23,618 nt of DNA, from positions 1 through 23,618 of the forward strand of contig JBNJGY010000031.1 in assembly GCA_051748045.1 (NCBI GenBank), read 5' to 3'. The notes under the pieces were generated by a model. The model saw nothing but the letters and a program-made list of their open reading frames with translations, was not told the DNA's origin and ran no database searches. Each line of letters starts with the position of its first letter. The first letter of the stretch is position 1. This document shows, piece after piece, positions 17,878 to 21,756 of the stretch. The stretch is from Thermotogota bacterium. GTDB taxonomy: Bacteria; Thermotogota; Thermotogae; Petrotogales; Petrotogaceae. A program made the translations under genes and the position numbers.

Positions 17878-17980
17878 GGTGGCTGAGCACCCCGCGGCAC
17901 ACGAAAAACGACGCTTATGGCTGCTCCCTTCCGGGCCTGACCAGATTCACGAGTTTTCGTTGCGCGGGACCCAGCCACTT
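17878..17980 (-). ncRNA. ffs: Signal recognition particle RNA (small bacterial SRP, 4.5S)
   Basis: GC-rich island; minus strand contains domain IV TCAGGCCCGGAAGGGAGCAGC with a GGAA tetraloop; ends pair (GTGGCTG/CAGCCAC) and are followed by a U-run. Confidence 0.95.
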
Positions 17981-19487: not shown

Positions 19488-19582
19488 TATCCTGCCTCCT
19501 ATTTTTTCTATTTACTATATTCTATCACTTGATTTATTAATTTTTTTTACAATCTTTAAAAATTTAGGAAGCAATTTCTTAA

Positions 19583-20905
19583 TCACAAGTATTTTAAATA
19601 CTTTTTGATCTCCCAATCTGTAACTTGTGTTCTGTATTCTAAAGCTTCTTGTTCTTTAATAGCAAGGAAACTCTTAGTTATATGCTCACCTAGAATACTT
19701 TGAATAAATTTGTCTTCTCTTAAAGCTATAATAGATTTTTCTAAAGACCCAGGAAGATTATCTATTCCTCTATGAATCTTTTCTTTTTCATTCAATTTAT
19801 AAATATTTTCAATAACTGGATCTTCTGGTTTAATTTGTTTTTTTATTCCTTCAAGACCTGCTGCAAAAACAACCGCTAAAAGTAAATATGGATTTGCAGT
19901 TGGATCTGGACTTCTTAACTCTGCTCTTGTTCCTTTACCTCTTGTAGAAGGAACTCTAATTAAAGCTGATCTATTTGAAACACTCCAAGCTATATTTGTT
20001 GGTGCTTCAAACCCAGGAACTAACCTTTTATAAGAATTAACAGTTGGGTTAGCAATAGCAGTAATAGCCTTAATATGTTTGATAATACCACCAATGAAAA
20101 ATCTTATTTTATCGCTTAATTCCCTTTCAGCATTTTTATCATAAAAAATATTTTCTCCGTCTTTAAACAAAGATAAATGTGTGTGCATTCCAGAACCATT
20201 AATATCAGCGAATGGTTTTGGCATAAAAGTTGCATGAAGACCTCTTAAAAGAGCTATAGTTTTAACTACCAATTTAAAAGTTTGAATGTTATCAGCTGTT
20301 TTCAACAACTCATCATATTCAAAATCAATCTCATGCTGAGAAGGAGCAACCTCATGATGAGATGCCTCAACATTAATTCTCATATCTTCAAAAGCTTCTA
20401 CAATATATTTTCTAGTTTCTTCTCCTAAATCAATAGGTAATAAATCAAAATAACCACCATCATCAACAAAATCTAAAACGGGATTAGATTTTTCGTCTTT
20501 TGGAAGCAAGAAAAATTCTGGCTCTGGTCCACAATGACCTTCATAACCGTATTCCTTCAACTCTTTAATAACTTTCTTCAAAACATATCTCGGGTCTCCA
20601 TCAAATGGTTCTCCCTCTGGAGTTTGTATATCACAAATAAGCCTTGCAACTTTCCCTTTTTCAACTGTCCAAGGTAAAACAGTAAAAGTGTCTATATCAG
20701 GTTTTAAAAGCATGTCTGATTCATCAATTCTTGCTAAACCTTCAATAGAAGACCCATCAAACATTGTCCCCTCTGTCAATGATTCTTCAAGTCTTGTCAC
20801 AGGAATCTCAACATTTTTGAGCATTCCATTGATATCTGTCACCTGTAACCTTACAAACTTTACTCCCTCTTTTGCGACTAAATCAATTAGTTCACCTTTT
20901 GTCAT
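19583..20905 (-). CDS. glnA: Glutamine synthetase type I
   Basis: FDGSSIEG, GPEPEFF, HHEVAPSQHEI, FMPKP, NGSGMH, YKRLVPGFEAP, NRSALIRVP, ELRSPD. Confidence 0.97.
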   Translation of the reverse strand: MTKGELIDLVAKEGVKFVRLQVTDINGMLKNVEIPVTRLEESLTEGTMFDGSSIEGLARIDESDMLLKPDIDTFTVLPWTVEKGKVARLICDIQTPEGEPFDGDPRYVLKKVIKELKEYGYEGHCGPEPEFFLLPKDEKSNPVLDFVDDGGYFDLLPIDLGEETRKYIVEAFEDMRINVEASHHEVAPSQHEIDFEYDELLKTADNIQTFKLVVKTIALLRGLHATFMPKPFADINGSGMHTHLSLFKDGENIFYDKNAERELSDKIRFFIGGIIKHIKAITAIANPTVNSYKRLVPGFEAPTNIAWSVSNRSALIRVPSTRGKGTRAELRSPDPTANPYLLLAVVFAAGLEGIKKQIKPEDPVIENIYKLNEKEKIHRGIDNLPGSLEKSIIALREDKFIQSILGEHITKSFLAIKEQEALEYRTQVTDWEIKKYLKYL

Positions 20906-20918
20906 AAATTCCCCTCCT

Positions 20919-20958
20919 AAAAAGTAACAAAGCCGACACTTAATGCGTCGGCTATGTT
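20919..20958 (-). terminator. Terminator-like hairpin inside the glnA 5' leader (putative attenuator)
   Basis: Minus strand AACATAGCCGACGC-ATTAA-GTGTCGGCTTTGTT followed by ACTTTTT and then the AGGAGG RBS. Confidence 0.65.
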
Positions 20959-21035
20959 GTGTATTTAAAAACTGTCCCCGTAGTTTTTATTTTCAAAAAT
21001 AGAGATTTAAGAACGTAATCAATTTTATTAGTCAT
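20952..21035 (-). CDS. Putative 27-aa leader peptide of glnA (MTNKIDYVLKSLFLKIKTTGTVFKYTT)
   Basis: ATG at 21035, TAG at 20954-20952 overlapping the 5' arm of the hairpin; only a weak RBS-like AGAAGCGA upstream. Confidence 0.35.
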   Translation of the reverse strand: MTNKIDYVLKSLFLKIKTTGTVFKYTT

Positions 21036-21052
21036 ACATCGCTTCTATTTGT

Positions 21053-21081
21053 ATTATATCACTATATTAATTCTTCGTCAA
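21053..21081 (-). promoter_or_regulatory. Sigma70-type promoter for glnA
   Basis: TTGACG (21081-21076)-N17-TATAAT (21058-21053) with an extended TG. Confidence 0.75.
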
Positions 21082-21097
21082 CTGAAATCATTTTATC

Positions 21098-21126
21098 TTT
21101 ACAAAGGGTGTTAATAGTGATATAAT
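21098..21126 (+). promoter_or_regulatory. Promoter for tRNA-Glu
   Basis: TTTACA-N17-TATAAT with an extended TG, back-to-back with the glnA promoter. Confidence 0.7.
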
Positions 21127-21141
21127 TAATCTAGCAAAAAT

Positions 21142-21216
21142 GGCCCCATAGGATAACGGCCAGTCCATCGGATTCTCAGTCCGAGAGTCGGGGTTCGATT
21201 CCCCGTGGGGCTGCCA
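21142..21216 (+). tRNA. tRNA-Glu (anticodon CTC)
   Basis: Acceptor stem GGCCCCA/TGGGGCT, anticodon arm TCGGA-TTCTCAG-TCCGA, T-arm CGGGG-TTCGATT-CCCCG, encoded CCA. Confidence 0.96.
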
Positions 21217-21258
21217 TAAAAAACAGGATTAGAACAAAAATTCTAATCCTGTTTTTTA
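21217..21258. terminator. Bidirectional terminator between tRNA-Glu and the convergent membrane-protein gene
   Basis: TAAAAAACAGGATTAGAA-N6-TTCTAATCCTGTTTTTTA. Confidence 0.85.
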
Positions 21259-21756
21259 TTATTTTCTCTTTTTGAAGAGTATTAACAGTCCTATTAATAT
21301 GAAAGCTGCTCCGATTATAGAACCACCTATTGCTGTTGTTGTTAAATTGGTCAATAAAAATATCAATCCCAATACAGATAATATTCCTACTGGAACTAGT
21401 AAGCCTTTTTCCCTTTTTCCAAAATAATAAAGTTGGAAGAGCCCAAAGGCAGGAGCAAGTATAAATATAGGCCATAGTAAATCCATGTATTTGAAATTTG
21501 TAAAAATGTTAAAATAGAAAAAAGTACCTATTACTAATAGTATTCCTCCAGGTACCAATTCGCCTGCATCTTTTGAATTTCTTTTTGTGAAGAAATCTAA
21601 TTCCATACTTAATCCTGGAACAAGAATAAATAACGGCCATATGTATTCCCAAATATTTCTGTCATCAAAAACTCCAAAAATTAATAGAACACCTATCGCT
21701 AGAAACAAAAGCCCATAAATTACTTTACTTAAATCTTTAATTACAACCACCCCCAA
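21259..21756 (-). CDS. Membrane protein with repeated WP-x-F-I-L motifs (LiaF/LiaI-TM or DUF5668-like)
   Basis: About 6 TM segments, duplicated 'WPLFILVPG' / 'WPIFILAPA' units; start codon uncertain. Confidence 0.7.
   Translation of the reverse strand: MGVVVIKDLSKVIYGLLFLAIGVLLIFGVFDDRNIWEYIWPLFILVPGLSMELDFFTKRNSKDAGELVPGGILLVIGTFFYFNIFTNFKYMDLLWPIFILAPAFGLFQLYYFGKREKGLLVPVGILSVLGLIFLLTNLTTTAIGGSIIGAAFILIGLLILFKKRK

Follow-up and report, generated by a model that had tools for sequence, protein, structure and literature searches.

What a terminator-like hairpin does in front of a glutamine synthetase gene is the question raised by the glnA locus of a salt-lake Thermotogota bacterium (G000; genome of 2.41 Mb, 28% G+C, 99.65% complete). 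Nearly every lineage studied controls glutamine synthetase via P-II, GlnR/TnrA, NtcA, NtrC or ANTAR. The initial annotation of the window, i.e., of the whole stretch of 23,618 nucleotides that was analysed, proposed that the glnA leader holds an undescribed attenuator or riboswitch. We compared this leader with those of two relatives of the same genus that also carry it, G002 (98% GlnA identity) and G001 (89% GlnA identity), and set it beside the other leader terminators of the host genome. On this comparison, the name attenuator is plausible, the name riboswitch is unsupported, and the distribution of the leader is narrow. The features of the locus are collected in Table 1.

Table 1. Features of the glnA locus, with positions numbered along the window.
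Feature	Position	Strand	Remarks
glnA promoter, TTGACG-17-TATAAT	21081-21053	-	11/12 matches; -35 at 21081-21076, TG at 21061-21060, -10 at 21058-21053
Predicted glnA 5' leader, ~140 nt	20906-21046	-	start predicted ~7 nt past the -10
First long imperfect stem, doubtful	20997-21050	-	outer arms 21050-21044/21003-20997, inner arms 21040-21035/21017-21012
Leader ORF of 27 codons, probably not translated	21035-20952	-	stop codon touches the terminator foot
Pyrimidine-rich tracts, candidate anti-SD	21014-21001	-	can pair with the ribosome-binding site in predicted folds
Hairpin 2	20989-20966	-	8-bp AU-rich stem, 8-nt loop (9 nt in G001 and G002), invariant G run
A/C-rich single-stranded linker, hairpin 2 to terminator	20965-20954	-	12/12 identical in G002, 11/12 in G001
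Intrinsic-terminator hairpin	20953-20931	-	9 bp, 6 of them G-C, loop of 5; extendable to 20958-20926
U-rich terminator tail	20930-20919	-	tail score 3.06; invariant in all 3 genus genomes
glnA Shine-Dalgarno (SD)	20918-20911	-	AGGAGG core 20918-20913 invariant in 3 genomes; 8th base differs in G001
glnA, glutamine synthetase type I, 440 aa	19583-20905	-	Gln-synt_C 7e-133, Gln-synt_N 3.2e-31
tRNA-Glu(CTC), divergent from glnA	21142-21216	+	own promoter 21098-21126, 11/12 matches
Palindromic hairpin with T runs, tRNA-Glu terminator	21216-21259		listed by the terminator scan on + only
LiaF-like ORF with LiaF-TM domains, beyond tRNA-Glu	21259-21756	-	same strand as glnA

The hairpin had been noted as having no same-strand gene upstream that it could terminate. 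The immediate neighbour is indeed the divergent tRNA gene, but beyond it a LiaF-like ORF lies on the strand of glnA. Judging by its symmetry, the palindrome that separates this ORF from the tRNA presumably also stops the minus-strand LiaF-like transcript at the 3' end of the ORF. No glnR is adjacent to glnA, as had been remarked, and the gene downstream encodes AICARFT and MGS domains. This purH-like gene product of 488 aa shows a modest AICARFT match (4.9e-24) in addition to the MGS domain; the spacer between glnA and the purH-like gene (19488-19582) is devoid of a terminator and contains, by eye, a promoter-like hexamer pair with TG. Elsewhere in the window, a small bacterial SRP RNA is encoded at 17878-17976 (-) with 79.3 bits. 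As for transcripts, eight salt-lake metatranscriptome runs contain 5–22% of the sampled sequence words, and in the four runs compared the exact contig pieces, 151–241 nt in length, all fall within the glnA coding sequence and outside 20903-21085.

We found that the near-consensus promoter reported ahead of glnA is well founded. Its hexamers, accompanied by the TG, are identical at 12/12 positions in both G001 and G002, with the spacer identical at 10/17 in G001, and it is the best of seven promoter-like sites in 20700-21400, where shuffled sequences yield 2.6 ± 1.4. The position of the -10 box places the likely transcription start at ~21046. The 145-nt leader folds with -32.5 kcal/mol (z = -3.06), a stability reached by none of 200 shuffles.

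The GC-rich hairpin described before the AGGAGG ribosome-binding site also stands, with the pairs and loop given in Table 1; like intrinsic terminators, it consists of a G+C-rich stem-loop and, immediately after it, a U-rich stretch, and it ends 26 nt ahead of the glnA start codon. Its tail is interrupted, three U being followed by a G. The search for terminator-like sites returned two, compared with 0.3 ± 0.6 in shuffles, and the stem of the glnA hairpin was calculated at -15 to -16 kcal/mol at 37°C, of which -9.8 kcal/mol remain at 60°C. To place these values, we refer to a scan of the 2.41-Mb genome for G+C-rich hairpins with a T-rich tail, which gave 560 in total, 299 of them situated at most 120 nt after a co-directional ORF and taken as the gene-end set. 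Median values of the gene-end terminators are -15.5 kcal/mol for the stem and 3.23 for the tail score, and the glnA hairpin (-15.0 kcal/mol, 3.06) is close to the median on both measures: 44% of the 299 are no stronger in stem energy and 45% no better in tail. Only 71 of the 560 hairpins lie inside ORFs, though ORFs make up 89% of the DNA, and arithmetic from this in-ORF count gives a chance expectation of ~0.004 such hairpins per 236-nt spacer on one strand. The glnA hairpin is an average terminator of this genome, placed where no gene ends.

The promoter scan detected no promoter-like site between the GC hairpin and the glnA ATG; hence, glnA must be transcribed through the hairpin. This bears on the idea that the leader is in fact the gene of a ~120-nt small RNA with its own set of targets, for which the read-through into glnA would be incidental. 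Such a gene would agree with a promoter-to-terminator unit that is both complete and conserved; yet read-through cannot be incidental where glnA is left without any other promoter, and the search of the genome for antisense partners returned a single near-match of 21 nt (C42:14488-14508), located inside a long coding ORF. We consider this explanation highly improbable.

The distribution of the leader is restricted. An orthologous glnA was matched in 33 of 41 related genomes searched, and its upstream regions in other genera of the order are unrelated and lack the leader. BLAST with the leader over 51 genomes of the order recovered only the three genus genomes, the other matches being short AT-rich stretches. 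The leader structures are retained in three closely related genomes only. A covariance model covering hairpin 2, the linker and the terminator, run over 151 genomes of the phylum, retrieved the same three genomes at 119–123 bits, with the next best match at 33.9 bits and none of the lower-scoring matches that were checked situated at glnA. Among metagenomes, a pattern scan gave 13 loci, two of which represent the leader, each identical to that of G001 or G002, and a GlnA search of genome contigs returned mostly distant genes of Bacillota and Chloroflexota together with one locus equal to G002. No further copies of the leader or its loop were found in the host genome, while the word that forms the hairpin 2 loop occurs in it three times, one of the other copies being in an mraY-like coding sequence.

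We also observed hairpins ahead of glnA in two other genera. In genus g9 of the same family (L012, L014, L020), an 11-bp hairpin immediately following a -10-like box spans ~34 to 8 nt ahead of glnA; the G-run ribosome-binding site constitutes its 3' arm, and the glnA start codon is reached through a U run. In genus g15 (L023-L027), a 5-bp hairpin with a G-rich loop is positioned ~36 to 19 nt before glnA, just ahead of the ribosome-binding site, and by eye its second stem pair is changed on both sides and kept in L027; the hairpin search recorded it in L023 and L026.

Within the genus, the leader is identical at 143/148 positions between the host and G002 and at 129/148 between the host and G001, where fourfold-degenerate sites of glnA agree at 76/142. 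Outside the variable promoter spacer, the G001 values are 12/12 for the promoter hexamers, 11/12 for the linker and 21/23 for the terminator. Judged by these identities, the leader is constrained along its length within the genus. The spacer between glnA and purH is just as conserved in G001 (87/95), so that high identity is not peculiar to the leader. The two terminator changes in G001 constitute one compensatory exchange of a C-G for a U-A pair, and the single change in the linker lengthens the G001 terminator stem to 14 continuous pairs with -20.5 kcal/mol. Since the comparison rests on three distinct sequences only, covariation is not significant, the covariation measures being reached by 158 of 500 shuffles.

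The leader had been depicted as a series of three consecutive structures, of which hairpin 2 and the GC hairpin are present, but the first, a long imperfect stem, is doubtful. Its 5' arm (21050-21044) begins upstream of the predicted start site and one pair is broken in each of its sub-helices in G001, including a central G-C replaced by U.U, with none of the losses compensated. Hairpin 2 itself is weak, at -4.3 kcal/mol at 37°C, and is unfolded at 60°C. Six of its pairs are invariant and two are changed one-sidedly (C-G to U-G and U-A to U-G), and its loop letters are unchanged across the genus apart from one inserted A. A DNA operator palindrome was considered for the conserved stem and dismissed, as a conserved G.U pair would be a mismatch in DNA; the same pair hints weakly at a role at the RNA level.

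The pyrimidine-rich tracts upstream of hairpin 2 bring translational control into view. In that scheme, the tracts at 21014-21001 would sequester the SD, with hairpin 2, whose loop mimics an SD, and the GC hairpin serving as scaffold or competitor. In both predicted folds, a long-range helix that takes in AGGAGG closes around hairpin 2 and the GC hairpin, the helix persists at 50–60°C in silico, and one-sided changes keep its pairing (A-U to G-U). However, the two folds differ in register, the single-sequence fold using 21005-21001 and the alignment fold ~21019-21006; all changes are one-sided with no compensatory one among them, and two pairs fail to form in the register tested. Pairing between A runs and U runs is, moreover, expected by composition at 28% G+C, and a tail of terminator quality would be left unexplained. 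Overall, control at the level of translation appears improbable.

We examined whether the leader belongs to a described RNA family, as the initial annotation had advised, and it matched none. At the gathering score, Rfam recognizes only the SRP RNA and tRNA in the window, and a permissive scan of 20800-21150 gave nothing better than E = 2. T-box elements were matched neither at E ≤ 10 in 20800-21150 nor at the gathering score in the window, and the Rfam covariance models of the glutamine riboswitch (glnA RNA and Downstream-peptide) found no match on the leader; the earlier impression that neither the cyanobacterial glutamine riboswitch nor a T-box is recognizable here was therefore borne out. 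A self-contained metabolite riboswitch responding to glutamine, glutamate, 2-oxoglutarate or another nitrogen signal, with its aptamer and expression platform made up of hairpin 2, linker and terminator, would consequently have to be new. It would fit with the conservation of unpaired elements, with the failure to find P-II, ANTAR or a GlnR-like regulator (see below) and with the use of terminators by four known riboswitch families in this genome. Against it, folding of the nascent leader prefixes revealed no alternative helix that competes with the terminator: prefixes ending at the terminator 5' arm or loop reach -7.7 to -8.3 kcal/mol vs. -7.3 kcal/mol without the arm. Pairing of the 5' end with the linker, tried as an antiterminator, was rejected, being broken by three changes in G001. 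With no competing antiterminator helix, a self-contained riboswitch is unsupported, and the low stability of hairpin 2 and the confinement to one genus among the 151 genomes of the phylum speak against it as well; the three sequences yield no covariation in favour of an aptamer. We judge the riboswitch reading, as put forward at the outset, to be quite improbable.

As for protein regulators, the ANTAR domain (PF03861) was detected in none of the three genus genomes, compared with 23 of 151 in the phylum and 10 of 25 in the family, and P-II likewise in 0/3 vs. 12/26 in the family. AmtB gave no match in the host genome, the control search being positive in all 14 control genomes. No MerR protein of GlnR size was found, given that eight of the nine MerR_1 matches fall in seven ORFs of 270–425 aa and the remaining match, in a frame of 139 aa, looks unlike GlnR by eye. 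Five of the MerR ORFs (L150, L152-L155; contigs C5, C38, C42 and C1) are paralogs of 405–425 aa with an N-terminal MerR domain, and two MerR ORFs also match methyltransferase domains. CsrA was considered as well, the leader possessing one GGA in a hairpin loop and another in the SD. The csrA gene is present within a flgK-flgL-fliW-csrA cluster (named by position and size), and the flagellin-domain search in the host genome matched FlgL only. At the level of abstracts, we found no literature on a glnA leader in Thermotogota.

A ribosome translating the leader ORF could, in principle, reach the stop codon at the foot of the terminator and block the hairpin. In the host, the first terminator base is shared with this stop codon, and the genome uses leader peptides at trpS, trpB, metQ and pyrB, the last of which ends inside its terminator. 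Unlike these four, however, the glnA leader ORF has no Shine-Dalgarno ahead of it, and it contains no Gln codon. In addition, one extra base in G001 and G002 puts the ORF out of frame and brings its end into the 3' arm of hairpin 2, by a by-eye count on the alignment roughly 15 nt upstream of the terminator. Consequently, the leader does not qualify as a leader-peptide attenuator, and ribosome-mediated attenuation seems very improbable.

Attenuation as such is common in this bacterium. The genome scan listed 39 leader-type terminators, of which 37 regions were analysed, glnA and one duplicate being left out. Five of the 37 hold riboswitches, namely Lys (asd), purine twice, FMN (ribD) and TPP (thiB), and seven are tRNA or tmRNA ends. 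Downstream ORFs were named with NCBIfam for 29 of the 37, after eight tRNA/tmRNA ends or duplicates had been dropped, and unexplained terminators were found to precede trpS, trpB, metQ, pyrB, pyrG, argS, rimP and others. Leader peptides preceded by an SD occur in four of the 13 leaders examined (trpS, trpB, metQ and pyrB), three of them with WWW or MMM. The distance from terminator to start codon, 7–44 nt in four of the five riboswitch leaders, brackets the 26 nt of glnA. These other leader terminators, comprising riboswitches and leader peptides, indicate that attenuation is in routine use in the host.

Some of these leaders merit description in their own right. The trpS and trpB leaders each encode a 17-aa Trp peptide with three consecutive Trp codons and an SD (L167:270-323 (+) and L185:265-318 (+); contigs C5 and C30), and no T-box was found at either of them even at E ≤ 0.05. 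At metQ, the leader peptide ahead of the terminator has 33 aa and a run of three Met codons (L168:884-985 (-), contig C5), and the 40-aa leader peptide of pyrB reaches 16 nt into its terminator, as in pyrBI (L177:245-367 (+), contig C14). Leader terminators lacking an Rfam match are located before argS, pyrG, rimP, a pyridoxamine kinase gene and a threonine-aldolase-like gene (L179, L186, L169, L187 and L183; contigs C19, C32, C8, C38 and C25, respectively).

It is also conceivable that the glnA leader does not switch at all, and that the hairpin is a fixed partial terminator damping a very strong promoter or a structure that stabilizes the mRNA or shapes the ribosome-binding site. The lack of an alternative structure that competes with the hairpin, the failure to find a known regulator or motif and the imperfect U tail are all compatible with such a constitutive leader, as is the equal conservation of the neighbouring spacer, by which conservation alone implies no switch. 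On the other hand, neither the invariant hairpin 2 loop nor the linker (11–12/12) would then have a role, and all leader terminators of this genome that can be explained are regulatory. Biosynthetic genes such as glnA are, besides, regulated in most bacteria studied. A leader of this kind, which would make the element an ordinary structured 5' UTR, strikes us as rather unlikely.

The reading we prefer, to which we assign a probability of roughly 0.4 and which is thus tentative, is that the glnA leader is a genus-specific transcription attenuator whose read-through is most likely set by a trans-acting factor. RNA polymerase would start at the strong sigma-70-type promoter and meet a hairpin of ordinary strength with its U tail 26 nt before the start codon, where by default a large share of the transcripts would end as a ~120-nt RNA. 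Expression of glnA would come only from read-through, i.e., the gene would be off by default, until a trans-acting factor, bound to hairpin 2 at its G-rich loop and to the A/C-rich linker, prevented terminator formation. A trans-acting factor is favoured because the RNA offers no competing helix but retains a conserved loop and linker, and the sensor of this orphan attenuator is probably trans-acting for that reason; the same lack of an antiterminator structure, together with the lack of a known binding motif in the leader, counts against this reading. So do the interrupted U tail, the occurrence in three species-level genomes plus two identical metagenome contigs, the non-significant covariation, the equal conservation of the glnA-purH spacer and the lack of the leader at glnA in other genera of the order, given that one would expect a wider distribution of a sensor tied to a universal metabolite. 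The promoter, the hairpin of terminator grade, the conservation within the genus and the lack of a family match are established, and the start site, termination in vivo, any regulation and the link with nitrogen are what we infer from them.

The only regulatory feature visible at glnA is a leader terminator outside any described family. Should this terminator be under regulation, its sensor would read nitrogen status in a new manner, and the host would offer a compact Thermotogota model of attenuation, with riboswitch, leader-peptide and orphan attenuators side by side. It could further be speculated that the genus, in which no GlnR-type regulator was found either, lost P-II, AmtB and ANTAR and evolved an RNA-level nitrogen sensor of its own in their place. 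Loop, linker and terminator would then represent a new class of glutamine- or 2-oxoglutarate-responsive attenuators, which would function as a riboswitch lacking a classical antiterminator or else be recognized by an RNA-binding regulator not yet described; we consider this extended scenario a long shot.

Among known systems, the leaders recognized by ANTAR proteins (the EutV, NasR and AmiR targets) resemble the glnA leader in having an intrinsic terminator before a nitrogen-assimilation gene and a small hairpin upstream. In an ANTAR target, the second hairpin and the terminator 5' arm have bases in common. Ramesh et al. (2012; PMC3369931) describe these RNAs as two tandem small hairpins with hexanucleotide loops, in which A is first and G is fourth. 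The glnA leader, in contrast, has no such pair of mini-hairpins, only a single small hairpin with a loop of 8–9 nt; prefix folds gave no hairpin that uses the terminator 5' arm, by eye no stem with a six-base loop lies in the preceding 30 nt, and the genus has no ANTAR protein that we could detect. In Bacillus-type protein attenuation (TRAP, PyrR, HutP and LicT), a protein that binds single-stranded or loop elements decides whether the terminator forms. The glnA leader is similar to these in carrying a terminator and differs from them in that by eye it contains neither repeated triplets nor a known binding motif. TRAP and PyrR act on an antiterminator, an element that is missing here.

The glutamine riboswitch, represented in cyanobacteria and marine metagenomes by the glnA RNA and Downstream-peptide motifs (cf. 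Weinberg et al., 2010), is likewise a cis-acting RNA before glnA. It belongs to a different phylum, however, and the leader studied here has a terminator platform with no recognizable aptamer. Compared with the riboswitch and peptide attenuators of its own genome, the glnA leader is set apart by the lack of a known aptamer or of an SD-preceded peptide with regulatory codons, and it shares with them the arrangement of promoter, leader and GC hairpin with U tail, the last at a distance of a few to 47 nt from the start codon. Leader-terminator attenuation is itself already known, and the glnA leader is probably a gene-specific instance of it, kept within one genus only.
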